Shown here: positions 21,658 through 64,000 of the stretch, piece by piece
Layout: each line of letters opens with the position of its first letter
How positions within the stretch are numbered: position 1 is the first letter of the stretch
Assembly: GCA_964619835.1 (NCBI GenBank)
Contig: CAZUFP010000002.1
Location: forward strand, 48,716 to 112,715
Source of the DNA: an uncultured Gemmatimonadaceae bacterium
GTDB lineage: Bacteria; Gemmatimonadota; Gemmatimonadetes; Longimicrobiales; RSA9
DNA length: 64,000 nt
Direction: 5' to 3'
The notes under the pieces: generated by a model
What the model was told of the DNA's origin: nothing
Seen by the model: only the letters and a program-made list of their open reading frames with translations
The model's database searches: none
Made by a program: the position numbers and the translations under genes

Positions 21658-22923
21658 TCAAGCGAAGATCCTGCGGGCGATCTCGAGGGCATCCGCAAGG
21701 CGGTCGATCTCGTCGACCGTATTGTACAGGTAACAGGACGCCCGTGTCGTCGCCGGCACACCCAGCCGGCGCATGAGTGGCTGCGTACAGTGGTGGCCCG
21801 CGCGCACGGCGACGCCTTCCGCGTCCAGGATCGTCGCCACATCGTGCGGATGCACGCCCTCCAGCTCCAGGGAGAACACCGCCGTGCGGTCCCGGGGATC
21901 CCGCGGACCGAACAGCCGAATGCCCGGTGCGCCCGTCAACCGCTCGAGACCATACTCGGTCAGCGCGTGTTCGTGGGCCTGGATGGCGTCCCGGCCGACA
22001 CCGTCGAGGAACTGCACGGCAGCGGCCATGCCCACCGCACCGGCCACGTTGGGCGTGCCCGCCTCGAACTTGTGAGGCACCTCGGCCCAGGTGGCGTGGT
22101 CCAGGTCCACCGTGTTGATCATCTCGCCGCCCCCCTGATAGGGCGGCATCTCCTCCAGCAGCTCGCGACGCGCCCAGAGCGCGCCGATGCCCATGGGCCC
22201 GCACATCTTGTGGCCCGAAAGGGCGTAGAAATCGCAGCCCAGAGCCTGCACGTCCACGGGCAGGTGCGGCGCGCCCTGCGCGCCGTCCACCAGCACCCGC
22301 GCGCCTGCGGCGTGAGCGCGCTCGACAATCTCCGCGACGGGATTGATGGTGCCCAGCGCGTTGGACACGTGGCCCACCGCCACGAGGCGCGTCCGCTCGT
22401 TGAGCAGTCCGTCCAGCTGGTCGAGGCGAAGGCGGCCTTCGTCATCGATGTCCACGTAGCGCAGCTCTGCGCCCACGCGACGCGCCAGCAGCTGCCACGG
22501 GATGATGTTGGAGTGGTGCTCCAACATGGTCAGGACGATCTCGTCCCCCGCGCCCACGTGGTCCGGGCCCCACGTGCTCGCCACCAGGTTGATGGCCTCC
22601 GTGGTGCCGCGCACCCACACCAACTCTTCCGCCTCGGGGGCGTTCAACGACGCGGCCACCACCCGGCGCGCGTCCTCGTACGCTTCCGTGGCCCGTCGCG
22701 ACAGCTCGTAGATGCCACGGTGCACGTTCGCGTTGTCTCGCCGGTAGAACCCCGACACCGCTTCGATGACCGGCGTCGGCCGCTGCGCCGTGGCCGCGCT
22801 GTCCAGGTACACCATGCGGTGGCCGTTCACGTTCTGGTCCAGGATCGGGAACTGCCTTCGCAACGCATCCGTGTCCAGCGCACCCAACCGGGACGCGCTC
22901 GGAGAAGTGATGACTTCGCTCAT
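21658..22923 (-). CDS. sufS: Cysteine desulfurase SufS (class V aminotransferase, group II)
   Basis: PLP-lysine motif SGHKMCGPMG and catalytic-cysteine motif RAGHHCTQP. Located in the suf cluster. Confidence 0.95.
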   Translation of the reverse strand: MSEVITSPSASRLGALDTDALRRQFPILDQNVNGHRMVYLDSAATAQRPTPVIEAVSGFYRRDNANVHRGIYELSRRATEAYEDARRVVAASLNAPEAEELVWVRGTTEAINLVASTWGPDHVGAGDEIVLTMLEHHSNIIPWQLLARRVGAELRYVDIDDEGRLRLDQLDGLLNERTRLVAVGHVSNALGTINPVAEIVERAHAAGARVLVDGAQGAPHLPVDVQALGCDFYALSGHKMCGPMGIGALWARRELLEEMPPYQGGGEMINTVDLDHATWAEVPHKFEAGTPNVAGAVGMAAAVQFLDGVGRDAIQAHEHALTEYGLERLTGAPGIRLFGPRDPRDRTAVFSLELEGVHPHDVATILDAEGVAVRAGHHCTQPLMRRLGVPATTRASCYLYNTVDEIDRLADALEIARRIFA

Positions 22924-23496: not shown

Positions 23497-24882
23497 TCAC
23501 TGGATCCTGCGCTCGATCTCCGCGCGCAGCTCCTCCACGACGCCCGGAAGCGGCAACCGGTCCAGCACGTCGTTGAAAAAGCCGAAGATGACCAGGCGCT
23601 CCGCATCGCGGTGCGACATGCCGCGGCTCATCAGGTAGAACAGCTCTTCCTCGTCGAGCTGTCCGACCGTCGCGCCATGGGAGCACTTCACGTCGTCCGC
23701 TTCGATCTCCAGGTTCGGCTGCGAATCGGCGCCGGCCTCCGTGGAGAGCAGCAGGTTGCGGTTGGTCTGGTAGGCGTCCGTGCGCTGGGCCCCCGGGAAG
23801 ACCTTGATGATGCCCCGGAACACGGAATGGGCACGGTCGTACAGCGCGCCCTTGTACAGCAGGTCGCTGGTGGCGTGGTCCGCCACGTGGTCCTGCCGCG
23901 TGTTGTGGTCGAAGTGCTGGTCCCCCTGGCCGAAGCACAGGCCCAGCATGTCGCTGCGCGAGCCGGGACCTTCCAGGCGGGCCGCCAGATCCGCGCGCGC
24001 CACGCTGGCACCCAGGTTCACCACCAGCGAGTCCAGGTTGGACCCCCGTTCGGCGAACGTGCGCTGCACCGACAGGTGGCGCACACCACGGCCCAGGAGC
24101 TGTAGCGAAACGTACTGCACGTCCGCGTCGTCCTGGGCGAACACCTCCACGCCGCCGATGCACACCGCCGGCTCGTCGAAGTCCGGCGACGCGTACTCGT
24201 CGACGTACGCCAGGTGGCTGCCTTCGTCCGCGATGACCAGCGCGCGGGGAAACACCGCGATCCCCGGCTTGCTGATCCAGCGGGCCACGCGGATCGGCTT
24301 CTCGATGCGCACGCCCCGGGGCACGTAGACGAACACGCCACCCGTCCACAGCGCCGCGTTCAGCGCCGCGAACTTGCCGGCCTCGGGCGGCAACGCCTTC
24401 GTCGCCAGGTGCTCCCGCACCAGTTCCGGGTGCTCCCGCGCCGCCGTCGCCAGGTCCGTGAGGATGACGCCGCGCTCCCGCAGTTCGTCGTCCAGCCACA
24501 CGTCCACCACCGACGCGTCCACTTGCAGCACCGTGCCCGCCGCTTCCTTGCCTTCGAAGAGAGCGCGCGCTTCCGCCGGGACCGTCTCCGCAGGTTCCGC
24601 GGGACGCACACGGTCCAGCGCCAGCTTCGACACGTCCGTGTAGCGCCACTCCTCCAGCTTGCGCGTGGGCAGCGGCGTCTGCTCGTAGACCTTCCAGGCG
24701 TTTTCCCGCAACGACCGGAGCCACGCCTCGTCCTGCGCCGCGGCACGCTCCAACGCGGCGACGTTGATGTGTTCCGTCACACCTTCAGGCACCGCGACAG
24801 CCGCGCTGCCGTTGGACGATCCGGGCGTCTTCTTCTTCGCCTTCGACAGGTCGATTCTGGGTGCGCCACTCACGTCAGCCAA
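23497..24882 (-). CDS. sufD: Fe-S cluster assembly protein SufD
   Basis: SufBD-family beta-helix sequence (…QNTRNLLLS-like [49 protein letters not shown]). Its start overlaps the sufB stop by 8 nt. Confidence 0.9.
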
Positions 24883-26290
24883 CGCTCCCCTCCATTTCGA
24901 GCTCGATCAGCCGGTTCAGCTCCACCGCGTACTCCAGCGGCAGCTCCTTGGAGATCGGCTCGATGAAGCCGCGCACGATCATGGCGCTGGCCTCGTCCGC
25001 CGACATGCCCCGGCTCATGAGATAGAACAGCTGCTCTTCACCGATCTTCGACACGCTCGCTTCGTGGCCCACGCTGGCCGTGTTGTCGTCGATCTCGATG
25101 TACGGGAACGTGTCCGTGCGCGACGTGTCGTTCAGAAGCAGTGCGTCGCATTCCACGTTCGACTTCGCACGGGTCGCCCCGTCATACACCTTCGCCAGGC
25201 CCCGGTAGCTGGACCGGCCGGTGCCCTTCGAGATCGACTTGGAGATGATCTGCGACGTCGTGTGCGGCGCCGCGTGCACCACCTTGCCGCCCGTGTCCTG
25301 ATGCTGGCCGTTGCCCGCGTAAGCGATGGACAGGATCGACCCGTGCGCACCCTCGCCCACCAGGTAGCACGACGGGTACTTCATCGTCACCTTCGAGCCC
25401 AGGTTGCCGTCGACCCACTCCATGGTGGCGTGCTTGTGCACCATCGCACGCTGCGTCACCAGGTTGTACATGTTGTTCGACCAGTTCTGGATCGTTACAT
25501 ACCGGAACCGGGCATTGTCCTTCACGATGATCTCGATCACCCCCGAGTGGAACGAGTCCGTGGAGTAGACCGGCGCCGTGCAGCCCTCGATGTACTGGGC
25601 GTCCGCCCCCTCCTCCACGATGATCAGCGTCCGCTCGAACTGGCCCATCTGCTCCTGGTTCACCCGGAAGTAGGCCTGCAGCGGCGTGTCGATCTTTACA
25701 CCCTTCGGGATGTAGACGAACGAGCCGCCCGACCAGACCGCCGAGTTCAGGGCCGCGAACGTGTTGTCCGCCGGCGGAATCACCGTGGAGAAGTGCTCGC
25801 GGAAGATGTCCGGGTACAGCCGCAGGCCGTCCTCGATGGACTCGAAGATGATGCCCTTGTCCTCCCACTCCTTCTTCAGCGAGTGGTAGACCATCTCCGA
25901 CTCGTACTGCGCTCCCACGCCTGCCAGTACTTTCTGCTCCGCCTCCGGGATGCCCAGCCGCTGGAACGTCTGCTTGATGTTCTCCGGCACATCGTCCCAC
26001 GAGCGCTCGAGCTTCTCCTGCGGCCGGATATAGAAGTAGATCTGGTCCATGGTCTCCTCGAGACCACTCAGATCCGCGCCCCACGTCGGCCAGGGCTTCT
26101 GGTTGTAGATCTCCAGCGCCTTAAGCCGGAAATTCAGCATCCACTCCGGCTCACCCTTGTTCGCGGAGATCTGCCGGACCACGTCCTCGCTCAGGCCCCG
26201 CTGCGCCTGGAAGAAAGGCTTCTCTTCATCGATGAAGTGGTATTTGTACTCGTCCAACCCGAGGTTGGATGCGGTTTCATCATACGGCAT
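24875..26290 (-). CDS. sufB: Fe-S cluster assembly protein SufB
   Basis: Highly conserved SufB sequence along the full length (e.g. [43 protein letters not shown]). Confidence 0.95.
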
Positions 26291-26392
26291 GCAGCGCCCT
26301 CCGAGATTCGGGGCTCAGGTGGTCTCCGATCCTTGCGGTGGGCCGGCACGGGAACCGGTGCGCCGGCGTGGTTCCACGACGGGGAGCAGGGG

Positions 26393-26436
26393 CGGGGGAA
26401 CAGAGGCTGCGACTTTCCCTCACCTCTGTTCCCCCG
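26393..26436 (-). other. Intercistronic stem-loop between sufC and sufB
   Basis: 14-bp stem (26393-26406 pairs with 26423-26436; core GGGGAACAGAGG / CCTCTGTTCCCC) with a 16-nt loop, inside a 179-nt sufC-sufB spacer. No U tract follows. Confidence 0.5.
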
Positions 26437-26469
26437 GGCCCCGTTGAAGTCGGGGAGAACTCCGCAGCG

Positions 26470-27255
26470 CTACGCGGTCGGCGCCGGCTCAGGCTCGCCA
26501 CGCCACTCCTCATAGCCCTGCTCCTCCAGACGCAATGCAACCTCCGGGCCGCCAGATTCCACGATGCGCCCCTCCACCATCACATGCACCACGTCCGGCT
26601 TGATGTAGTTCAACAGCCGCTGGTAATGCGTGATGAGCAACACCGTCATCTCCGGGTGCTCCTCATGGACCTTGTTCACGCCGTTCGACACCACCTTCAA
26701 CGCATCGATGTCCAGGCCGGAATCGGTCTCGTCCATCACCGCCAACGACGGCTCCAGCATCGCCAGCTGCAGAATCTCGTTCCGCTTCTTCTCCCCACCA
26801 CTGAAGCCCGCATTCACGCTCCGCGACGCAAACGCAGGATCCATATCCAGCAAACGCATCCGGTCCGTCAGCTGCTCCTGGAAATCGAACACGTCCACTT
26901 CCTCGCCCGTCTTCCCCTGCAACGCCGTCCGCAGGAAGTTGGCGATGGACACCCCCGGAATCTCCACCGGGTACTGGAACGCCAGGAATACCCCGGCCCG
27001 CGCCCGCTCGTCCACCTCCAACGACAGCAGGTCCTGGCCCCGATATTCCACGGCGCCCCCCGTCACCTCGTACCCGGGGTGCCCCGCCAATACCTTCGCC
27101 AGCGTGCTCTTGCCCGACCCGTTCGGGCCCATGATCGCGTGAACCTCCCCTTCCGGAACTTCCAGGGTGAGGCCCTTCAATATCTCTCGACCTTCCCCCT
27201 CATCCTGCACGACGCGCGCGCGCAGGCCCTTGATCTTCAGCATCGGATCGCTCAT
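26470..27255 (-). CDS. sufC: Fe-S cluster assembly ATPase SufC
   Basis: Walker A GPNGSGKST, ABC signature FSGGEKKR, Walker B LAVMDETDSGLD. Confidence 0.95.
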   Translation of the reverse strand: MSDPMLKIKGLRARVVQDEGEGREILKGLTLEVPEGEVHAIMGPNGSGKSTLAKVLAGHPGYEVTGGAVEYRGQDLLSLEVDERARAGVFLAFQYPVEIPGVSIANFLRTALQGKTGEEVDVFDFQEQLTDRMRLLDMDPAFASRSVNAGFSGGEKKRNEILQLAMLEPSLAVMDETDSGLDIDALKVVSNGVNKVHEEHPEMTVLLITHYQRLLNYIKPDVVHVMVEGRIVESGGPEVALRLEEQGYEEWRGEPEPAPTA

Positions 27256-36870: not shown

Positions 36871-38859
36871 GTGTCCGAATCCATGACACGAGCGAAGCAC
36901 GCTCAGGAAACCGGGTTCGGGAGCGTACGCGCGCTCCTGCCCGCATCAGCGTGGGTGGCGACCGGTGTGTTCGCCGCGCTCTCGCTGTACCTGATCGTGC
37001 CGCTGGCACCGACCGGCCGCCACGTCCTGGGCGCCGTGCTGCTGACGCTGCTGCCGCTGGCCTCGGCCGTGGCGGCCAGCGTGGCGGCGCGCCGGGCGGC
37101 GGCGGATGCGCGCGCGGCCTGGCTGCTGTTCGCGGGCGCCGCGCTGCTGGTCTTCGCGGGTCAGGTGGCATGGGCCGCCGAGGTGGGTGCCGGCCTCGGC
37201 ACCAACACCTTCCCCCGCTCCGCGCTCGTGCTGCTGCCGTTGTTCCACCCGGTGTTCGTCGCAGGTGTCATCTACGCCCTGCGTTGGGACCGCATGCGGC
37301 GCTTCGGCACGGAGATCGCCCTGGACGGCGTCCTGATTTTCCTGGCCGGCCTCATCCTCGTGATGCGGGTGGTCGTCGAGCCGTCGAGCACCGTGGCCCC
37401 GGGACGCCTGGTGCTCATGGCGGCCATCGTGATGCTGTCCATCGTCTCTCTTCTCGCGGCGGCGTTGATGGTCGTGTGGCGCACCCCATCCATCTCGGCG
37501 CAGGCGGCCTCCGGGATGTTCCTGGCCACCGTGTTCTTCGCCGCGGGCAACGTGCTGTCGGCGGCGGGGTTCGATCCGGCGCCCGTGTGGCCGGGCGACG
37601 CCTTCGATCTGATATGGCTGGCCGGATGGGCGGCGTTCGCATGGGCCGGACTCGCGGGCTCCACCCTCGCCTCGCCGAAGGTCGTGGGCGGCGCGGAAGG
37701 GCGGGCGGTGGCGCGGTTCGGCCGCTCCATCGTGCCGGGCATCGCTGTGTTCCTGGCCATCATCGTGGTCGACGGCTCCATCGGGCGCCCCATGCGGCCG
37801 GCAACCGGACTGCTGGCCGGCCTGTTGTGCGCCGCGCTCGCCGTGCGCATCACCCACGCGTTGAGCGTGGCGGACCGCCGGGCGCAGGAGGAACGGCGGT
37901 ACGAGCATGGCCAGGTGCTCATCGACGTGAGCCACCTGCTGGCGGGCGCGATGGATGTGGGCCGCGTGCTGTCGCTCATCTCGGACGCCGCCCGGCGGGT
38001 TTTGGCGGCGAAAGCCGCGGGCATCGAACTGTTGTCGGACGACGGTTTGACGCTGGTCACCCGCACGGCCCTGGGCCTTCCCGACGAGATCCTGGGCCTC
38101 CAGTTCCCCGTAGACGGGAGCTTCACCGGCTGGGTCGTGCAGCACGCCGAGCCGCGGGCCACCGTCGACCCCCAGACGGACCCGTACATCCAGCCGCAGA
38201 GCCGCCGCTACCTGGGCCGCTCTCCCGTCGCGGCGGCGCCGCTTCGCTTCGGTGCTCGCACGTTCGGCGTGTTGTACGGGATCCGGGACCGTCCGTTCAC
38301 GCCGGAGGAGCTGGAGCTTCTGGGCGCCCTGGGCGAGCAGGCGGCCGTGGCCATGGAGAACGCCCGCCTGTTCGAGCAGGTCACTGCCATGTCCCTCACC
38401 GACGCGCTCACCGGCCTGGCCAACCGCCGGCAGCTGGAGCGGGACCTGGCCCGGGAGTTCGCAGCGGCACGGCGCGGCCGCCCGCTCACAGCCGTCATGT
38501 TCGACATCGACGACTTCAAGGACTACAACGACCGCTACGGACACCTGGCGGGCGACGACGCCCTGAAGGCGCTGGCCACGGCGCTCAGGGTGGAGACGCG
38601 GGCCATGAACCTGGCCGCGCGTTACGGAGGCGACGAGTTTGTCGTATTGCTGTCCGACGCGGATGACACGGGCGCACGCCTGTTCGTGGAGCGCGTGGCC
38701 CAGCGCTTCACCCAGGAGGTGCTGGCGCTGGGTCGCGGCAGTCTCACCGTCAGCGCCGGCCATGCCTGCTACGACGGCGAGATGGCGGACTGGCTCCAGC
38801 TGCTCGAAGCCGCGGACCGGGCGCTCTACCGGGCCAAACCCCCGCGAGCCAGGACGTAG
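36871..38859 (+). CDS. Membrane sensor diguanylate cyclase (multi-TM N-terminus, GAF, GGDEF)
   Basis: About 8 TM helices, a GAF-like region, and the active-site motif RYGGDEFVVLL. An RxxD-type segment lies upstream. The start is GTG 36871 or ATG 36883. Confidence 0.9.
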   Translation: MSESMTRAKHAQETGFGSVRALLPASAWVATGVFAALSLYLIVPLAPTGRHVLGAVLLTLLPLASAVAASVAARRAAADARAAWLLFAGAALLVFAGQVAWAAEVGAGLGTNTFPRSALVLLPLFHPVFVAGVIYALRWDRMRRFGTEIALDGVLIFLAGLILVMRVVVEPSSTVAPGRLVLMAAIVMLSIVSLLAAALMVVWRTPSISAQAASGMFLATVFFAAGNVLSAAGFDPAPVWPGDAFDLIWLAGWAAFAWAGLAGSTLASPKVVGGAEGRAVARFGRSIVPGIAVFLAIIVVDGSIGRPMRPATGLLAGLLCAALAVRITHALSVADRRAQEERRYEHGQVLIDVSHLLAGAMDVGRVLSLISDAARRVLAAKAAGIELLSDDGLTLVTRTALGLPDEILGLQFPVDGSFTGWVVQHAEPRATVDPQTDPYIQPQSRRYLGRSPVAAAPLRFGARTFGVLYGIRDRPFTPEELELLGALGEQAAVAMENARLFEQVTAMSLTDALTGLANRRQLERDLAREFAAARRGRPLTAVMFDIDDFKDYNDRYGHLAGDDALKALATALRVETRAMNLAARYGGDEFVVLLSDADDTGARLFVERVAQRFTQEVLALGRGSLTVSAGHACYDGEMADWLQLLEAADRALYRAKPPRART

Positions 38860-45723: not shown

Positions 45724-46191
45724 CTACTGCCGGCGCTCCGCCATCAGGACTTCCGCCAGCTTGTCCGCCACCAGCTGGACCTGTTGCTCGTCCTCGTCCG
45801 AGAACGCAGCCTTCCGGTCACTGTCCACGTCGATCTGGCCCAGGATCGCGTCGCCCGCCCGGATCAGCACGACCATCTCCGACTGCGTGTCCGGGCTGCA
45901 CGCCATGTAGTCCTCCGACTGGCTCACGTCCGGCACGTTGGCGTTCTCACCCTTCGCCACCGCCTGCCCGCACACCCCCATGCCCACTTCGATCAGCGCA
46001 TGCTCCGTCGGTCGGCCAACGTAGTTGTGCAGCCAGAGGCGGTTCTTCTCATCGTCCACCAGGTAGACGCCCACCCAGTCGAAATGATCCTCCTTCGACA
46101 GGTCGCGAACCACTCGCCGCATGATCGGGTCCGACAGATGTCCCGATTCCCGCATCTGCTGAATTCCCTTCACCAGCTCCGTCGTGTCCAT
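45724..46191 (-). CDS. GAF domain protein (free methionine-R-sulfoxide reductase/YebR-like)
   Basis: Single-GAF protein, about 155 aa, with WVGVYLV...GVCGQAV...QIDVDS as in the fRMsr-type family. Confidence 0.8.
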   Translation of the reverse strand: MDTTELVKGIQQMRESGHLSDPIMRRVVRDLSKEDHFDWVGVYLVDDEKNRLWLHNYVGRPTEHALIEVGMGVCGQAVAKGENANVPDVSQSEDYMACSPDTQSEMVVLIRAGDAILGQIDVDSDRKAAFSDEDEQQVQLVADKLAEVLMAERRQ

Positions 46192-51869: not shown

Positions 51870-53102
51870 ATGCCGCTCACGAACGACAACAACGGGACCT
51901 ATTTCCGCCGCGGCCTGGGCCTCAAGCAGGAGGTCCAGCCGGTGCTCGACGCCGAGTACCACAGCGCACTGGTGGCACAGATCAAGGCCGGCGGACAGAG
52001 CCTCACCGTCGGCGACGTCACCCTCCGCCTCGCCGAGGAGTTCGGCTTCTGCTACGGCGTCGACCGCGCCGTCGACTACGCCTACCAGACCGCCATGAAG
52101 TTCCCGAACCGGCGCATCTTCCTGGTGGGTGAGATCATCCACAACCCCCACGTCAACCAGCGCATGCGGGAGATGGGCATCACATTCATCTACCCGGAGG
52201 ACGGCGGCGTCTTCGACTTCTCCGTCGTCACGCCCGACGACGTGGTGATCATGCCCGCGTTCGGCGTCACGCTTCACGACTTCCAGACCCTGCGCGACGT
52301 CGGCTGCGTCCTCATCGACACCACCTGCGGCTCCGTGCTCAACGTGTGGAAGCGGGTGGACGCGTACGCCAAGGACGGCTTCACCGCCATCATCCACGGC
52401 AAGTACAGGCACGAAGAGACCCGGGCCACCGCAAGCCAGGTCAACCGGCACGGCGGCGAGTACATCGTGGTGCGCAACATGGAGGAAGCGCGCCTCGTCA
52501 TGGATTACATCGAACAGAACGGCGACGCCCTCTCCCGTGACGCGTTCATCGAACATTTCCGCGCCAAGGCATCGCCCGGCTTCGATCCGGATCGCCATCT
52601 CGCCCGTGTCGGCGCCGCCAACCAGACCACCATGCTGGCCACCGAGTCCCTGGCCATTGCCAGCGCCATCGGGGACAGCATCGCGCGACGTTACGGCGAG
52701 GCGCACAAGGCCGAGCATTTCCGTTCCTTCGACACCATCTGCTCCGCCACGCAGGAGCGGCAGGACGCGGTCAAGAAAATGATGGAAAACCCGCCCGACG
52801 TGATGATCGTCATCGGCGGCTACAACTCGTCCAACACCAACCACCTGGCGCATCTGTGCCGGGAATACACGACGACGTTCCACATCGCCGACGCGACCTG
52901 TATCGACCCGGATGCCGGGACCATCCGCCACAAACCGGAGCTCGACCCCGACACCCCGGAAGCGTCCACGGAAGGCTGGCTGCCCGTCGGGCCCGTTTCC
53001 ATCGGATTCACCGCCGGCGCCTCCACGCCCAACAACAAAATCGGCCAGACCATCGAACGCGTGCTGGCGCTGCGCGGCCTGCCCGTGCCGGAGCTCGTGT
53101 AG
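51870..53102 (+). CDS. ispH: 4-hydroxy-3-methylbut-2-enyl diphosphate reductase IspH (long form)
   Basis: EFGFCYGVDRAV, DTTCGSVLNVW and NSSNTNHL motifs carrying the three cluster cysteine regions. 410 aa with an N-terminal extension. Confidence 0.9.
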   Translation: MPLTNDNNGTYFRRGLGLKQEVQPVLDAEYHSALVAQIKAGGQSLTVGDVTLRLAEEFGFCYGVDRAVDYAYQTAMKFPNRRIFLVGEIIHNPHVNQRMREMGITFIYPEDGGVFDFSVVTPDDVVIMPAFGVTLHDFQTLRDVGCVLIDTTCGSVLNVWKRVDAYAKDGFTAIIHGKYRHEETRATASQVNRHGGEYIVVRNMEEARLVMDYIEQNGDALSRDAFIEHFRAKASPGFDPDRHLARVGAANQTTMLATESLAIASAIGDSIARRYGEAHKAEHFRSFDTICSATQERQDAVKKMMENPPDVMIVIGGYNSSNTNHLAHLCREYTTTFHIADATCIDPDAGTIRHKPELDPDTPEASTEGWLPVGPVSIGFTAGASTPNNKIGQTIERVLALRGLPVPELV

Positions 53103-53147
53103 GCCGAAAGCCCTCCCCGCCCGGCGACGAAGGCCCTCACGCATTTA

Positions 53148-53177
53148 TTGACATCCCCATCCCACCGCGGATATCTT
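53148..53177 (+). promoter_or_regulatory. Candidate sigma70-type promoter for the 53233 gene
   Basis: Perfect TTGACA (53148-53153), an 18-nt spacer, then TATCTT (53172-53177), about 55 nt upstream of the ATG. A perfect -35 hexamer is unusual in this GC-rich context. Confidence 0.35.
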
Positions 53178-53232
53178 GTGGCGATCCCAATGTGTTGCGG
53201 CAAGGCCGCTTCCGGATTGCCGAGGCCGGTGA

Positions 53233-55878
53233 ATGGCGGACCCAAACCGCGATGAAATCGCGAGGCTGGAGTTGCTCCACCGTGCGCATCCCGACGGCCT
53301 CATCTTCCCGCATCTCGCCGAGGCCTATCGCCGCGATGGGCAGCTAGACAGGGCAGAAGATGTTCTGTTGCAAGGACTTTCGCGCCAACGCGACAACTCC
53401 AGCGCGCACGTCGTGCTGGGGCGCGTTCGCCTCGACAAGGGCGAAACGGAAGCCGCACAGACGTCGTTCCGCCGAGTCCTCCAACTCGATCCGGACAACT
53501 CCGTGGCGTTGCGCGCCCTCGGCGACCTCGCCCTGCGAACCGGCCAGTTCGGCGACGCCGTGAACCACTACCGCCACCTGCAGAGGCTCTATCCGCTCGA
53601 TGAGGAGCTGGCGGCCCGCCTGGCGGAAGCCGAGCGGCAGGCGCAGGGCGGCGGGCCATCGTCGCAGGCTCCGTCGAACGTCCCGCGCAGGACGCCCCCC
53701 GTGCGGGCGCGTGCGGTCCAACGGCTGGGCCTGGGAAGCGGAGTCGTAGGAGGAATCGGAACGCACGGTCCGACAACGAGTTCCACCCACGGCGGCCGCG
53801 AGCCCGACGAGGTCTACACGGAGACGATGGCCGAGCTGTACCAGCGGCAGGGGCTGCACGAACGGGCGGTGCGGATTTACCGCCGCCTGCTGCGCGCACA
53901 CCCCGGCGATCGACGGCTGGAGGCTCGTCTGGAGGAAGCGGAGATCTCCCGGCGGTTGGCAGCTCAGAGGGACAAAGCGGCGGAGCCGGCGCCGCGCCAG
54001 GCGGAGCCCCGGCCGCACCCGACCGCGCCGCAGACACGCCAGGCCGAGCGGCGGCCGGAGACGGCCGAAACGCGGCCGGACCAGGGCGCGGCACAACTGC
54101 GTCGAGCCGAGCCCGAAGCCCGAGCCGCCGTACCGCCCACGCCTCCATCCGGGCCGACCGCCCGCTCCTACCTGAAAGACCTGTTGGCCTGGAGGAACGG
54201 CCGGCACCAGCCCGCTGGCAACGGCGGTCAGCCGCCCGGCACCCCGGTGGCGCCGGCACCGCCGCCTGCGCCCACAGTAGCGGAGCGGGACGAGCCATGG
54301 CCCTGGGAAGAGCCGGTCGCGCCAGCGAACCCTCCGACGAAAGCGGCGGAAACGAACGCGTCCAGGGCTGCGGGCCCCCGTTGGCCATCGCCGGCCCCGC
54401 CGCTGGTTGAGCCGATTCGCTCTGTGGGGGAACCGGTTGCGGGCTCGTTCGAGCCGCTGCCCGACGCGGTGCCTGCGCTGGCCGCCCAGGCCCCGGCGCC
54501 GCGGGCGCATCCGGACGCCGAAGCCGTGCTGGCCATCACGGACCTCCTCGTCGGGCTGTTGGAGTACCGGGACCCGTTCTTCCGGGGCGGCAGCAGCCTC
54601 ACGCGCCTGCTGGCGGCGGCCGTGGGACGGGAGATGGGCCTGGCGGAGCCGAACGTGCACAACCTGGCGCTGGCGGCGGTGCTGCGGGACCTGGGCCGGC
54701 TGGCGTTGGGCGGCAAGCTCGTGACGCAGCCGCAGGCGGCGAGGACACCGGAAGCCCGTCGCCGCATTGAACGGCATGTGGACCTGGCTCTTCACCTGAT
54801 GGAAGGGATCAATCTGCCGGCCTCGGTGCGGTACGCCGTTCGGCATCACCACGAGCGTTGGGACGGACGCGGCTACCCCGACGGCCTCGCCGGGGCGGAA
54901 ATCCCGCTCTCCGCCCGCATCCTGGCCGTGGTGGACTCGTTCGCCGCCATGGTCGCGGCACGCCCCTACCGCCTGCCGCGCAAGGTGCCGGAAGCCGCCG
55001 CCGAGCTGCAGTCGGAAGCGGGAACGCGCTACGATCCGGACGTGGTGGCTGCGCTCATGCGGGTCCTGTCGCGGAGGGACCAGCCCGGCCTCGGCTTCGT
55101 CCTTCGCCACCACATCCTCATCGTCAGCCCGGACCAACCCGGCGCCACCGTCACAGCCGCGAAGCTCTGCTCGGCCGGATACCTGGCCGAGGTTGCTCCG
55201 GACATGGCCACGGCGCAGGACCGGCTGCGGCGGGTCCCCGTGGCCGCGGTCATGGTCGGTGCCGAGCTGATGAACGGCGATGCCGTCCGCTTCATCCGCG
55301 AGCTCCGCTCGGATCCCATGCTGGGGCAGCTCCCCATCGTCGTCATCGATGCGCCTCGTGTCGACGACCGTGTCGAGCTGCTGGAGAACGGCGCGGACGT
55401 CTGCTTCGCACCCGACGCCTCCTATTCCGAGCTCCACGGCACGCTCGGCGCCCTGATCCGGCGCGCGTTCCGCCAACGGTCCGGCGACGACGAAGGAGCC
55501 GGCACGGAGAACAGCGCATCCCCCTGGCTGGCCTTGCAAGGAGACATCCAGGACTTCCCCCTCACCTGGCTGCTCCAGGTCATGAAGTACGACGGCCGCA
55601 CCGCCGCCATCGGTATCCGCACTACGCAGGAGCTGGGCGTCATCTACCTGGAACAGGGCGACGCCCGACACGCCCAGATCCGCGGCGGCGTCAAGGGCGA
55701 ACCGGCGCTCCGCCAGATGCTCAGTTGGCGCAAAGGCCACTTCACCGTGGAACCCGATGCGCACCCCCCGGAGCGCACAATCACCACGTCCATCACCCAC
55801 CTCCTGCTGGACCAGGCAGTGGCGGAGGACCACGCCGCCGCAGGCCAGATCTTCGGCGCCGTCAAGGCGGACCAGTAG
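53233..55878 (+). CDS. Multidomain signalling protein: N-terminal TPR repeats, a long Pro/Ala/Arg-rich linker, an HD-GYP domain, a receiver-like domain and a C-terminal DUF4388/PATAN-like domain
   Basis: TPR-like repeats in aa 1-140. HHHERWDGRGYPDG lies at about 54841-54885. The receiver-like segment starts at HILIVSPDQPG. The C-terminus has LQGDIQDFPLTWLLQVMKYDGRTAAIGI. Confidence 0.85.
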   Translation: MADPNRDEIARLELLHRAHPDGLIFPHLAEAYRRDGQLDRAEDVLLQGLSRQRDNSSAHVVLGRVRLDKGETEAAQTSFRRVLQLDPDNSVALRALGDLALRTGQFGDAVNHYRHLQRLYPLDEELAARLAEAERQAQGGGPSSQAPSNVPRRTPPVRARAVQRLGLGSGVVGGIGTHGPTTSSTHGGREPDEVYTETMAELYQRQGLHERAVRIYRRLLRAHPGDRRLEARLEEAEISRRLAAQRDKAAEPAPRQAEPRPHPTAPQTRQAERRPETAETRPDQGAAQLRRAEPEARAAVPPTPPSGPTARSYLKDLLAWRNGRHQPAGNGGQPPGTPVAPAPPPAPTVAERDEPWPWEEPVAPANPPTKAAETNASRAAGPRWPSPAPPLVEPIRSVGEPVAGSFEPLPDAVPALAAQAPAPRAHPDAEAVLAITDLLVGLLEYRDPFFRGGSSLTRLLAAAVGREMGLAEPNVHNLALAAVLRDLGRLALGGKLVTQPQAARTPEARRRIERHVDLALHLMEGINLPASVRYAVRHHHERWDGRGYPDGLAGAEIPLSARILAVVDSFAAMVAARPYRLPRKVPEAAAELQSEAGTRYDPDVVAALMRVLSRRDQPGLGFVLRHHILIVSPDQPGATVTAAKLCSAGYLAEVAPDMATAQDRLRRVPVAAVMVGAELMNGDAVRFIRELRSDPMLGQLPIVVIDAPRVDDRVELLENGADVCFAPDASYSELHGTLGALIRRAFRQRSGDDEGAGTENSASPWLALQGDIQDFPLTWLLQVMKYDGRTAAIGIRTTQELGVIYLEQGDARHAQIRGGVKGEPALRQMLSWRKGHFTVEPDAHPPERTITTSITHLLLDQAVAEDHAAAGQIFGAVKADQ

Positions 55879-55951
55879 CCACGCCCGGGGCACCGGGCGC
55901 CCCCCTGACCTTCCTCACGAATATTCTTGCGTCTGTGGCGCCTGGGCGGGC

Positions 55952-56368
55952 TCAGCGGGACTCGTGGTCGTTTCTCCGGGCATCGAGCGAGTACGCATCC
56001 TCGTCCACGTGCCAGAGCAGGAAGAAAAGGGCGAGAGCGACGAGCAGGCTGTACGTGGCGGCGCCCGTGTCGGGCTCCATGACGGCGCCGTACGTGACCG
56101 CCACCATGACGAGGCCGGCCAGCGGCAGGACGCGGCGCGTGAACAGGCCGATGGCCAGGAGCAGCCCGACGGCGGTTTCGATGAAGGGCAGGGCGTACGC
56201 GAACGGCACAACGTAGAAGGATGGCAGCGTCCCGGCGAAGCGATCCGCCATGCCAGCGACGTGCGCGGCGAGACCCCTCGTCAGCGTGCCGAGTCCCGTG
56301 AACATGAACAGCACGCCGACCGTGACACGGAGCAGGAGGTAGGCGACCCGGCGCGAATTGCCCATCAT
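55952..56368 (-). CDS. DoxX family membrane protein
   Basis: About 138 aa with four TM helices. N-terminus AYLLLRVTVGVLFMFTGLGTL is typical of DoxX. Confidence 0.75.
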   Translation of the reverse strand: MMGNSRRVAYLLLRVTVGVLFMFTGLGTLTRGLAAHVAGMADRFAGTLPSFYVVPFAYALPFIETAVGLLLAIGLFTRRVLPLAGLVMVAVTYGAVMEPDTGAATYSLLVALALFFLLWHVDEDAYSLDARRNDHESR

Positions 56369-56383
56369 CCCTCCAGCAGGGCG

Positions 56384-56818
56384 TCAGTGAACCTGTGAAG
56401 GCCGCGGTCGCTCGATGCGCACCACGTGGACGGGCGAACGTGCAATGACCGTGTCGTCCACCACGAGATGGAACTCGTAGACGCCGAACTCCGGGAACGT
56501 CACGGCGCCCAGCTGGACGATGATCTGCCCGCGCAGCCGCCCGGCCCCGGTCCGCATCATCCGGATGGGGTTGGAAGGGCTCAAGGGAACGATCTCACGG
56601 CCGTCTTCCATGAAGAGCCCGAGGCGGAACTGGTGTTCCTCCAGCTCTTCGGCGTCACCCGCCTCCAGACGTGCCACGAGGAACACCGGCGCGTGGGTGA
56701 CGGGCGCGGCGGGGGCGGCGATGGTGTCGAACTCGCCCACGATGACCAGCTTGCCTTCGCGCGTCTCCGTCACATGGTCCGCCAGCAGGGCGAATTTAAG
56801 CTCCATGGCCTGGCTCAT
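56384..56818 (-). CDS. Hypothetical protein (about 144 aa, probably all-beta)
   Basis: ATGA overlap with the upstream GNAT stop. The start reads MSQAMELKFALLADHVTETREGKLVIVGEF. No recognised domain. Confidence 0.55.
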   Translation of the reverse strand: MSQAMELKFALLADHVTETREGKLVIVGEFDTIAAPAAPVTHAPVFLVARLEAGDAEELEEHQFRLGLFMEDGREIVPLSPSNPIRMMRTGAGRLRGQIIVQLGAVTFPEFGVYEFHLVVDDTVIARSPVHVVRIERPRPSQVH

Positions 56819-57337
56819 GTCTGGAGTCCCAACCGGTACTCCATCTCGATCTCCGGGGCCCAGATGGTTGCGGGCAGGCGTTTGAAGCCCGCCTTCTGAT
56901 AGGAGCGGATGGCCGCCCGGTTGGACGGCTCCACGCTCAGCCACAACCGATCATAGCCTGCCGCACGCGCCAGGTCGACCAGCGCTCCGTTCAGCGCCGT
57001 GCCGATGCCACGGTTGCGGATGGACTGGTGCAGGAAATTCGCCAGCTCCACCGTGCCATCGTAGGGGAGCAGCATGCCGTGACCGAGCAGCGTGTCGTCC
57101 ACGATCACGATGGCGTGCAACCCCTGGCCCAGGATGGCCGCCAACCAGGCCTGGCGGGCCACGGTGTCCTGGGGCGGCAGGCCCTGCGCGATTCGCTTCG
57201 GCTCGAACGCATCGTACATCGACGCCAGCCCGGCCAGGTCATCCGGCGTCTGGCGCCGGATGGTGAACGGGTGACCTCCCTTGTCGAGAAGCGTGACGGG
57301 AAGCTCTACGGGACTCGTCAGAACCCTAACCCCCAAC
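56815..57337 (-). CDS. GNAT family N-acetyltransferase
   Basis: LHQSIRNRGIGTAL acetyl-CoA-binding motif and C-terminal AIRSYQKAGFK. The start is uncertain: TTG at 57337 would overlap the HDAC stop by 20 nt, and the longer ORF to 57498 is unlikely. Confidence 0.75.
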
Positions 57338-63244: not shown

Positions 63245-64000
63245 TCATCGGCCCAGCAGCAGCCGTTCCTCGACCCTTCCGAATGCGGTGATGACGGCCG
63301 GGTCGTAGCGGCTCCCCGCGCCCTCGGCGATCTCGTCCACCGCTTCCGACCAGAGCAGTGCCTTGCGGAACGCACGGGCCGACGTCAGCGCGTCGAGGGA
63401 ATCCGCGACCGTGACGATCCGCGCCTCAATCGGGATGGCCTGGCCTTCCAGGCCGTCCGGGTAACCTCCGCCGTCCCACCGCTCGTGGTGATGGCGGGCC
63501 ACCCCGAGGATCGTCTCGTTGTCGAACAGGTTCCGGAGCATCTCCCAGCTGCGGACCGGATGGCTCCTCACGACCTTGAACTCCTCGTCGGTCAGGCGAT
63601 CCGTTTTGTTCAGGATGGCCTGCGGAATGGAGATCTTGCCCACGTCGTGGACGCGCCCGGCCAGCCGGATCAGCTCTTCGTCCGCGCCAGGCACTTCACT
63701 GGCGATGATGCCGGCAAACAACGCCACCCGGTCCGCCCGGCCACGCGTGTAGGCATCCTTGAGCTCCACCGCGCGCACCATCTCGATCGTGGCCTTCAGC
63801 AGGTGGCGGGCCATGGACTCGTCGTCGCCCACCAGCGAGGCACGCGCGGCACGCTGCGCCAGCGCGTCATCAAACGCCGCGTCCAGCTTCCCCGGCTCGA
63901 CGGGCTCCTTGAGGACGTGGCGGCAGTCCATGCGCACCAGCTCCGGCTCCGTGCGGTCCTTCGCCACCGACAGGCCCACGAGCTCCAGCAGCGGATCATC
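63245..64000 (-). CDS. HD-GYP domain protein (c-di-GMP phosphodiesterase type); 5' end beyond the window
   Basis: HDVGKISIP and HHHERWDGGGYPDG motifs. The reading frame is still open at position 64000, and the track start at 63979 is an internal GTG. Confidence 0.85.
   Translation of the reverse strand, partial: DDPLLELVGLSVAKDRTEPELVRMDCRHVLKEPVEPGKLDAAFDDALAQRAARASLVGDDESMARHLLKATIEMVRAVELKDAYTRGRADRVALFAGIIASEVPGADEELIRLAGRVHDVGKISIPQAILNKTDRLTDEEFKVVRSHPVRSWEMLRNLFDNETILGVARHHHERWDGGGYPDGLEGQAIPIEARIVTVADSLDALTSARAFRKALLWSEAVDEIAEGAGSRYDPAVITAFGRVEERLLLGR

Follow-up and report, generated by a model that had tools for sequence, protein, structure and literature searches.

What does the protein encoded at positions 53233-55878 (+ strand) of a 64,000-nucleotide stretch of DNA from an uncultured Gemmatimonadaceae bacterium do with cyclic di-GMP (c-di-GMP): does it degrade the nucleotide, as an HD-GYP enzyme would, or does it sense it? 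We refer to the whole stretch that was analyzed as the window. The gene is a single open reading frame (ORF) running from ATG to stop, 881 amino acids (aa) plus the stop codon, and it is one real gene, as the initial annotation had it, with full-length orthologues that match it at up to 100% coverage. Our analysis indicates that the protein more likely senses c-di-GMP than degrades it. We put at roughly one half (about 0.5) the probability that it is a cytoplasmic, multivalent c-di-GMP-sensing adaptor that docks onto its partners through PATAN and TPR domains. The HD-GYP fold is present; in residue-level alignments, its nucleotide-contact residues are kept and three residues of one of the two catalytic metal sites are lost.

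We mapped the domains with Pfam and NCBIfam scans, together with an AlphaFold2 model that drew on an alignment of 61 homologues (mean predicted local distance difference test score, pLDDT, of 76, with 438 residues at ≥90). The five-part layout proposed by the initial annotation, in which TPR repeats, a linker, an HD-GYP domain, a receiver-like domain and a DUF4388/PATAN domain follow one another, was recovered in all its parts:

53242-53643, + strand: N-terminal TPR domain (aa 4-137; Pfam TPR_2 E 4e-15 and many other TPR models)
53644-53805, + strand: disordered stretch 1, Gly/Pro/Ser/Arg-rich (aa 138-191; pLDDT 29-44)
53806-53982, + strand: extra TPR-like helical unit (aa 192-250; Pfam TPR_14, TPR_7 and TPR_6 at aa 198-232)
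53983-54153, + strand: disordered stretch 2, Pro/Ala/Arg/Glu-rich (aa 251-307; pLDDT 36-54)
54154-54195, + strand: conserved short helix or linear motif (aa 308-321; consensus [IV]R.[YH][LF]..[LVI]L.[WF])
54196-54510, + strand: disordered stretch 3, Pro/Ala-rich (aa 322-426; pLDDT 30-39)
54511-55077, + strand: stalk helix and degenerate HD-GYP domain (aa 427-615; Pfam HD_5 E 2.6e-39 at aa 439-604)
55090-55485, + strand: pseudo-receiver (aa 620-751; (beta-alpha)5 fold, match to the PhoB receiver)
55531-55848, + strand: PATAN/DUF4388 (PatA_N) domain in a compact form (aa 767-872; Pfam PF14332)

By sequence, then, the protein is a member of the HD-GYP, TPR and PATAN families, and by fold only it belongs to the receiver superfamily.

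Membership of the HD-GYP fold is clear. In addition to HD_5, the Pfam model HD matches the domain (E 2e-8), the best Foldseek match of the region is DvhD (9rbz; 33% identity, E 2e-9, target-normalised template modelling (TM) score 0.80), and the matches among PDB sequences comprise V-cGAP3, DvhD, PA4781 and PmGH, with which residue-level alignments were made. The HHHERWDGRGYPDG motif on which the domain had been called canonical is present at aa 538-551. The domain as a whole is not canonical: its dyad reads R485-D486, its first metal-ligand His is G453 and its stabilizing Asp is A571. Aligned with PmGH, the substituted positions are H221 of the HD dyad, a metal ligand (R485), the first metal ligand H189 (G453), D308, which holds H189 in place (A571), the third-metal ligand E185 (F449) and, conservatively, the center stabilizer K225 (R489). 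The Phe in place of E185 puts the domain in the ‘binuclear’ HD-GYP subgroup. The positions kept are the second residue of the dyad, D222, also a metal ligand (D486), the putative catalytic D183 (D447), the metal ligands H250 (H515), H276 and H277 (H539 and H540) and D305 (D568), the substrate-contacting Tyr of the GYP motif, Y285 (Y548), and the substrate contacts R314 and K317 (R577 and R580). Read along the protein, H515, HHHE at 538-541, DGRGYP at 544-549, D568 and R577-P-Y579-R580 remain, the last of these being an instance of the RxY[K/R] motif that is largely responsible for c-di-GMP specificity (bioRxiv 2021.11.05.467447).

The same pattern recurs across the family. Position 485 is Arg in 57 of 61 members and Gln in the other four, position 453 is Ser in most orthologues, and His occurs at 453-455 in no member, while H515, H539, H540, E541, D568 and G547-Y548-P549 are each at least 90% conserved. 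Among about 50 members at 40-60% identity, D447, D486, H515, HHHE, D568, GYP and RxYR are strictly conserved. The losses are family traits and not a private mutation of one protein. Several sub-branches (P0054-57, P0128, P0143-145 and others) have lost HHE and GYP too (HTNH and DGDGA in P0054-57) and keep the fold and the pseudo-receiver, and in most cases PATAN, so that the role of the protein in those lineages cannot depend on catalysis. With the dyad reading RD and the first His gone, it is unsafe to speak of a ‘c-di-GMP protein’ if a phosphodiesterase is meant.

The closest solved structure, DvhD of Desulfovibrio vulgaris (PDB 9RBZ/9RC0), is a non-catalytic c-di-GMP receptor that binds the nucleotide without metal and does not hydrolyze it (PMC13090378). 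The DvhD alignment was numbered by the residues that this paper names; the two agree in their letters at K520, Y523, P567, R569, L577, K582, Y621, M646, R650, Y652 and E668, and the register is therefore secure. Four contacts of the canonical site are kept: Y621 (Y548), R650 (R577) and Y652 (Y579), all conserved in the family, and M646 (M573; Met in 55 of 62 sequences). K582 is conservatively replaced by R509 (Arg in 58/62) and Y523 by F449, which keeps the aromatic ring. Of the remaining two, E668 corresponds to a partly conserved E595 (Glu in 31/62) and L577 is not kept, being R504 here and variable in the family. The six of eight contacts that are kept or conservatively replaced support nucleotide binding having been retained, and the metal ligands lost number two or three of eight, fewer than in DvhD. 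Both proteins have lost the HD dyad, share the GYP motif, RxY and most nucleotide contacts, and place a helical stalk before the domain. They differ in that DvhD sits in the membrane, with a periplasmic domain and PAS ahead of HD-GYP, serves a Lap-like adhesin system and has no TPR, pseudo-receiver or PATAN, and in that the HH pair, MN in DvhD, is kept here. PA2572 (a receiver plus YN-GYP), HnoD and ECA3548 are comparable as well: each has an altered HD dyad with GYP kept, shows no detectable c-di-GMP hydrolysis and yet has a regulatory role. Their dyads are YN, SE and HT, in contrast to RD here, none of them carries PATAN or TPR, and the receiver of PA2572 is N-terminal and thought to be regulatory.

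Behind the HD-GYP domain, aa 620-751 show the (beta-alpha)5 order of strands and helices of a receiver in the AlphaFold2 model and match the PhoB receiver (E 2e-8 to 3e-8; 2.4e-8 in the search against PDB sequences) along with many other receiver structures; the Pfam Response_reg score is 14.4 bits, under the cut-off of 30.2. The initial annotation had noted IVSPDQ in place of the acidic pair and MVGAEL at the expected acceptor, and both strings do align to the acidic pocket and acceptor of PhoB and CheY, two alignments that agree on the register. In E. coli CheY numbering, D12 becomes S632 (D/N/S/H in the family), D13 becomes P633 (Pro in 48/62), the acceptor D57 becomes G676 (Ser in 48, Ala in 8 and Gly in 4 of 62 sequences), T87 becomes D706 and K109 becomes P727 (Pro in 42/62). 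Since all five catalytic positions are substituted, the domain cannot accept a phosphoryl group. Its structure matches include the second receiver of PleD, an adaptor, which fits a putative adaptor or dimerization role for the pseudo-receiver. A kinship with the FrzS pseudo-receiver was rejected, as the match reached an E value of only 0.28.

The C-terminal domain had been described as DUF4388/PATAN-like, and PF14332 matches aa 769-865 with 51.7 bits against a cut-off of 25; the orthologues carry it too, as PatA_N. A separate AlphaFold2 model of aa 760-881 (pLDDT about 90 over the core) runs in the order helix, three strands, helix, strand, long helix. Foldseek found no match to this model in the PDB at E ≤0.001; the best hits, fragments of GHKL ATPases with an E value near 0.09 and a TM score near 0.3, were treated as noise. 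A search of the pseudo-receiver plus PATAN segment against PDB sequences likewise returned receiver domains only, with no solved structure for the PATAN part. In cyanobacteria, PATAN alone localizes to the membrane and has two pilus proteins as binding partners, the extension ATPase PilB1, bound at its N-terminal part, and the platform protein PilC; the domain co-occurs with GspE_N/MshEN domains, and SgnC of M. xanthus is required for social motility (bioRxiv 2021.06.11.447907). Type IV pilus genes have been reported in Gemmatimonadota genomes of all environments but marine, and flagella are rare in soil genomes of the phylum (PMC10581226).

Two known families place PATAN or HD-GYP beside a receiver fold, and the protein belongs to neither because the tests of domain order and of the phospho-acceptor both fail. 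In the PatA-type regulators (cyanobacterial PixG, PixE, LsiR and PatA), PATAN is the output domain that binds PilB and PilC. There, an N-terminal PATAN is followed by a phosphorylatable REC domain, whereas here a pseudo-receiver lacking the acceptor Asp precedes a compact PATAN of about 100 aa, with HD-GYP and TPR added. In the RpfG family, an N-terminal phosphorylatable receiver precedes a C-terminal HD-GYP domain; here the order is reversed, and the receiver fold that follows the HD-GYP domain retains no phosphorylation residue.

At the other end of the protein, the TPR repeats predicted by the initial annotation form seven or eight helices at pLDDT >90 (eight when read at 94-98), with several Pfam models of the tandem 34-residue helix-turn-helix repeat above their cut-offs and Foldseek matches to designed TPR proteins (TM 0.78-0.87), OGT and MamA. 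The linker that follows had been described as about 300 residues of Pro/Ala/Arg/Glu-rich low-complexity sequence. Its disorder and the presence of those residues held up (the disordered parts contain 22% Pro, 16% Ala, 10% Gly, 10% Arg and 7% Glu), but the disordered residues number about 218 and fall in three stretches, with pLDDT <50 at 143-191, 256-299 and 321-424. Nor is the linker one block, being interrupted by the TPR-like unit at aa 192-250, whose helices (197-205, 209-222 and 227-250; pLDDT 84-98) are conserved among orthologues, and by a helix at aa 310-320. The latter lies in the short conserved motif, modelled as helix over 310-318 at pLDDT about 74, with column counts among 61 sequences of I41, R39, Y36, L44, L46 and W45, the W320 position being Phe in a further seven. 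The disordered stretches vary in length among orthologues, from 0 to 218 aa for the poorly conserved first, 1 to 132 aa for the second and 15 to 364 aa for the third, giving a total linker span of 73 to 604 residues. Tandem Repeats Finder on the linker DNA gave weak micro-repeats only and no significant tandem repeats.

Put together, these parts suggest how the adaptor might work. The RD-GYP domain would bind c-di-GMP with little or no hydrolysis, in the manner of DvhD, and the stalk and pseudo-receiver would transmit or fix a dimeric arrangement. The pseudo-receiver would be a fixed adaptor or dimerization module that couples the nucleotide-binding domain to PATAN, and PATAN would attach the protein to a pilus motor or a polarity complex. 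Held on a flexible tether some 220 residues long, the TPR domain could recruit a further partner or be auto-inhibited by it; as an alternative, the conserved 308-321 helix could occupy the TPR domain in cis. The nearest functional analogy would be a degenerate HD-GYP receptor such as DvhD or PA2572, joined to the docking output of a PatA-type PATAN domain. Genes for c-di-GMP turnover are present in the same window, which we counted in favor of the receptor reading:

36871-38859, + strand: GAF-GGDEF protein of 662 aa, likely a diguanylate cyclase, about 14 kb upstream of the 881-aa gene
63248-64000, - strand: second HD-GYP protein (Pfam HD_5 E 1.9e-37), running past the window end

The second HD-GYP protein extends beyond the window at its N-terminal end. 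Its HD dyad is intact (VHDVGK), HHE, GYP and DxxD are present, and Arg stands in for the first metal-ligand His (YTRGRADRV). Together with the GAF-GGDEF protein it indicates that the organism runs c-di-GMP signaling. A 665-aa GAF-GGDEF gene also lies about 7 kb upstream of an orthologue (locus L002).

Several observations weigh against the sensing adaptor. Five of the eight PmGH metal ligands (D486, H515, H539, H540 and D568) are near-invariant in the family, as is D447, the putative catalytic residue. Why a pure receptor should need them is not obvious, and DvhD has lost HH too. The loss of the first His is by itself not decisive, and weaker than the loss of the HD dyad, because RpfG naturally lacks the equivalent of PmGH H189 (PMC4159591). 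The KPG loop, which contacts the second guanine, is not conserved, reading QPQ here and varying in the family. The partner of PATAN is extrapolated from cyanobacteria, and neither the window nor the orthologous loci examined contain a pilus, chemotaxis or polarity gene as a conserved neighbor.

The first of these observations is the best argument for a different answer, namely that the protein is an active c-di-GMP phosphodiesterase, or a pGpG/cGAMP hydrolase, with a remodelled metal center, placed by TPR and PATAN as a local c-di-GMP sink. Such an enzyme would hold one metal at D486/H515/H539/H540, and Arg485 would supply the charge of the missing second metal. The strict conservation of the remaining motifs in about 50 members fits this alternative, as does the recurrence of the R/Q-D variant with HHE and GYP in unrelated architectures, which suggests a functional subtype, and HD-GYP active-site arrangements are known to be plastic (bioRxiv 2021.11.05.467447). 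However, the HD-GYP enzymes studied experimentally typically require two metal ions (bioRxiv 2021.11.05.467447), and in PmGH each of H189A, H221A and D308A essentially abolishes activity (PMC4159591). The HD-dyad variants studied so far are also inactive, among them PA2572 of P. aeruginosa (YN), with undetectable phosphodiesterase activity (PMC3411652), HnoD (SE), ECA3548 (HT) and DvhD (SQ), and the sub-branches described above have lost the remaining motifs too. We regard an active enzyme as unlikely, though it is the strongest of the competitors to the receptor reading.

A second alternative bears on the nucleotide contacts: the HD-GYP domain might neither bind nor cleave c-di-GMP and serve instead as a protein-contact surface, for example through a GYP–GGDEF interaction as reported for RpfG. 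The variable KPG loop is consistent with such a scaffold, inactive HD-GYP proteins can regulate through protein–protein interactions, and a GAF-GGDEF protein is encoded in the vicinity, in the window as well as close to an orthologue. Ryan et al. reportedly tied GYP-dependent protein interactions of RpfG to pilus motility. Against this stand the RxYR specificity motif and most DvhD contacts, which are conserved, and the conserved metal ligands, which a role in protein contacts only would leave unexplained. A nucleotide-blind scaffold is accordingly quite improbable, and a c-di-GMP receptor is the reading we prefer.

The breadth of the family settles whether the gene itself can be trusted. In a database search, an identical protein turned up on a 156,834-bp NCBI contig. 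About 60 more clusters, drawn from NCBI, JGI, ENA and Logan assemblies, share the layout over the full length; their identity to the protein is 40-77% and their coverage reaches 100%. All members with a taxon name are listed as a Gemmatimonadota, Gemmatimonadetes or Longimicrobiales bacterium. A gene fused by frameshift or assembly error across a GC-rich low-complexity region, or a decaying pseudogene, could be suspected from the 72-77% GC with long antisense ORFs and from the degenerate catalytic motifs. Yet the same uninterrupted architecture occurs in about 60 independent clusters at 100% coverage, synteny is conserved, all folded domains show strong column conservation, and AlphaFold2 models them confidently. 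This conservation led us to reject the artefact, which is effectively refuted. The gene order is shared by all four orthologous loci examined (41-63% identity), running ispH, sometimes YkuD, the 881-aa gene, a small minus-strand ORF, GNAT and deacetylase, and it points to vertical inheritance at a fixed chromosomal position, not to a functional operon. The family is thus inherited vertically in Gemmatimonadota/Longimicrobiales. A profile search of genome contigs with the family alignment found no true orthologues, as generic HD-GYP domains (HERWDGxGY) swamped the list.

The architecture had been called unusual, with no characterized counterpart. A literature search indeed found no paper on the TPR/HD-GYP/REC/PATAN combination and no characterized protein with it, but the architecture is not a one-off, given the 60 or so clusters and the occurrence of its C-terminal trio elsewhere. 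A dedicated census of HD-GYP architectures describes the domain as typically the C-terminal output domain, and its main text makes no mention of PATAN, DUF4388, TPR or Gemmatimonadota. We searched aa 615-881 with phmmer against 1.84 billion cluster representatives and obtained 2365 hits at E ≤1e-3, 112 of them at E ≤1e-10; the REC–PATAN tandem alone is widespread on this count. From the best 150 hits, 142 newly retrieved sequences were classified with hidden Markov models built from the family: 61 were REC–PATAN only, 20 were HD-GYP–REC–PATAN without a detected TPR, 9 were TPR–HD-GYP–REC–PATAN, and MshEN–HD-GYP–REC–PATAN and REC–HD-GYP–REC–PATAN were represented by one each. Because the trio HD-GYP–REC–PATAN occurs elsewhere, it is an older module. 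What is specific to the Gemmatimonadota family is the N-terminal TPR and tether, together with the fully degenerate receiver.

Among relatives outside the family, P0096 and P0234 (with MshEN) and P0172 (REC–HD-GYP–REC–PATAN) end in the trio with its order unchanged, and in this part they are detectably homologous to the 881-aa protein (27% identity, with 49% of the query aligned). All three are uncharacterized and begin with MshEN or REC, not with TPR and a linker. P0096 and P0234 (MshEN, Pfam E 4e-14; receiver, 58 bits; PATAN) differ further in keeping a true HD dyad and the first His, and in a receiver with Lys109 and with Glu at the acceptor. MshEN is the c-di-GMP-binding domain of pilus and secretion ATPases, and we counted its N-terminal position in these relatives towards pilus docking. 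The neighborhoods of P0234, P0096 and P0172 contained no pilus or chemotaxis genes; the REC–RD-GYP–REC–PATAN example adjoins STAS-domain genes in L086 and L087.

In the other HD-GYP–REC–PATAN proteins, the receiver keeps Lys109 and its acceptor is mostly Glu or Ala, not Asp. More widely, many receivers directly before PATAN (P0096, P0234, P0160, P0185, P0189 and P0223, for example) have Glu at the acceptor (LIISE, LIVSE, IILSE) with Lys109 kept, and phosphorylation-independent receivers beside PATAN are therefore not rare; the receivers of P0175, P0195 and P0206 show the canonical DD...D...S/T...K pattern. A further set (the P0148 cluster, with WP_331022470.1 of Longimicrobium sp. as an example, P0149-151, P0159, P0166, P0168, P0210 and P0230) combines TPR, a much more degenerate HD-GYP domain and a pseudo-receiver with no PATAN detected. 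Their dyads are SD, GA, SA or similar, and many of them lack GYP. The shortest has about 380 aa and the longest 1108 aa, with about 502 aa in the Longimicrobium cluster. Paralogy, or truncation in one lineage, may account for this set.

Distant TPR-less proteins also bear on the dyad. It reads RD in P0172, P0201 and P0244 and QD in P0216 and P0228, and all five keep HHE and GYP, so that R/Q-D, on the alignments, may be a recurrent subtype and not random decay. A bolder proposal would be that ‘RD-GYP’ (Arg/Gln in the dyad; HHE, GYP and RxYR kept) is a distinct, recurrent and unrecognized class of metal-poor c-di-GMP receptor, wired in Gemmatimonadota through the pseudo-receiver and PATAN to the type IV pilus or polarity machinery with TPR as a second docking arm, and that HD-GYP–REC–PATAN is an overlooked module with HD-GYP as sensor and PATAN as output. 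We offer this tentatively, as a whole it being somewhat doubtful. None of the domain types is new, and there is precedent for degenerate HD-GYP sensors; what is uncharacterized is the combination of domains, the conserved RD-GYP signature and the wiring of HD-GYP through a pseudo-receiver to PATAN.

The start and the upstream signals of the gene were read from the DNA:

53148-53177, + strand: predicted sigma-70-like promoter candidate (TTGACA at 53148-53153, 18-nt spacer, TATCTT)
53222-53225, + strand: possible ribosome-binding site GAGG, 7 nt before the ATG

The perfect TTGACA -35 element that had been pointed out upstream is present. With its TATCTT partner it matches 10 of 12 consensus positions and is the sole such site in 52900-56500 (3.6 kb), where shuffles give 0.1; it is a consensus match, not proof of function. 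The GAGG site and the N-termini of the orthologues (consensus MASxxRDEISRLELL), which align from residue 1, make the start codon credible. The region of the gene has 65-77% GC, with a GC content at third codon positions of 0.84 for the + strand ORF, and the long antisense ORFs opposite it are a usual by-product of such high GC. An Rfam scan of 52800-56500 gave no riboswitch or other RNA, and a search around the gene found no terminator-like site.

What is conserved beside the orthologues is a set of housekeeping genes: ispH, a gene of the YkuD family, GNAT, an AcuC-like deacetylase and a protein with a CBS domain. Upstream in the window lie ispH/LytB and, further away, an S41 peptidase and an AIR-synthase-like gene (- strand). 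Downstream, DoxX, DUF6941, GNAT and AcuC-like deacetylase genes, all on the - strand, are followed by DUF885 and ThyX. The features with coordinates are:

51870-53102: ispH/LytB, upstream of the 881-aa gene
55955-56368, - strand: small DoxX-family membrane protein, directly downstream and convergent with the 881-aa gene
56387-56944, - strand: DUF6941 protein (E 1e-26), convergent with the 881-aa gene
45727-46191, - strand: stand-alone GAF protein

The orthologous loci have an unannotated small ORF where the window has DoxX and DUF6941. Two genes seen in one genome each were not counted as linkage: one for a protein of 185 aa in which a pilin N-methylation motif is weakly matched, some 3 kb downstream of the orthologue (L088:12623-13180, - strand), and one for a BcsA-like cellulose synthase with PilZ, also about 3 kb downstream (L089:12650-15019, - strand), followed by DUF3131 and a GH6 gene. 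Elsewhere in the window, an ordinary housekeeping SUF iron–sulfur cluster (SufB/SufD paralogues and the SufC ABC ATPase; 23500-27255, - strand) is followed by a class-V aminotransferase (SufS-like; 21661-22923).

The current database names, ‘HD domain-containing phosphohydrolase’ at NCBI and ‘c-di-GMP phosphodiesterase class II’ at JGI, probably overstate the enzymology. If the protein were an ordinary localized phosphodiesterase, the value of the finding would be limited to annotation. The receptor reading would interest specialists in c-di-GMP and type IV pili and correct these annotations, although it opens no long-standing question by itself. Many bacteria have plenty of enzymes that turn over c-di-GMP but few known receptors (PMC12448109), and degenerate HD-GYP receptors were shown structurally only recently, in DvhD (2026). 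The family would represent a second, different route to an HD-GYP-based sensor, in which half of the metal center is kept, Arg replaces the dyad His and PATAN is fused to the domain, and it would provide a test case for the function of the remaining half of the HD-GYP metal site. Gemmatimonadota are abundant in soil and have almost no experimental signaling biology; if the receptor reading is true, the protein would be a direct physical link between c-di-GMP and the pilus or polarity machinery in this phylum.

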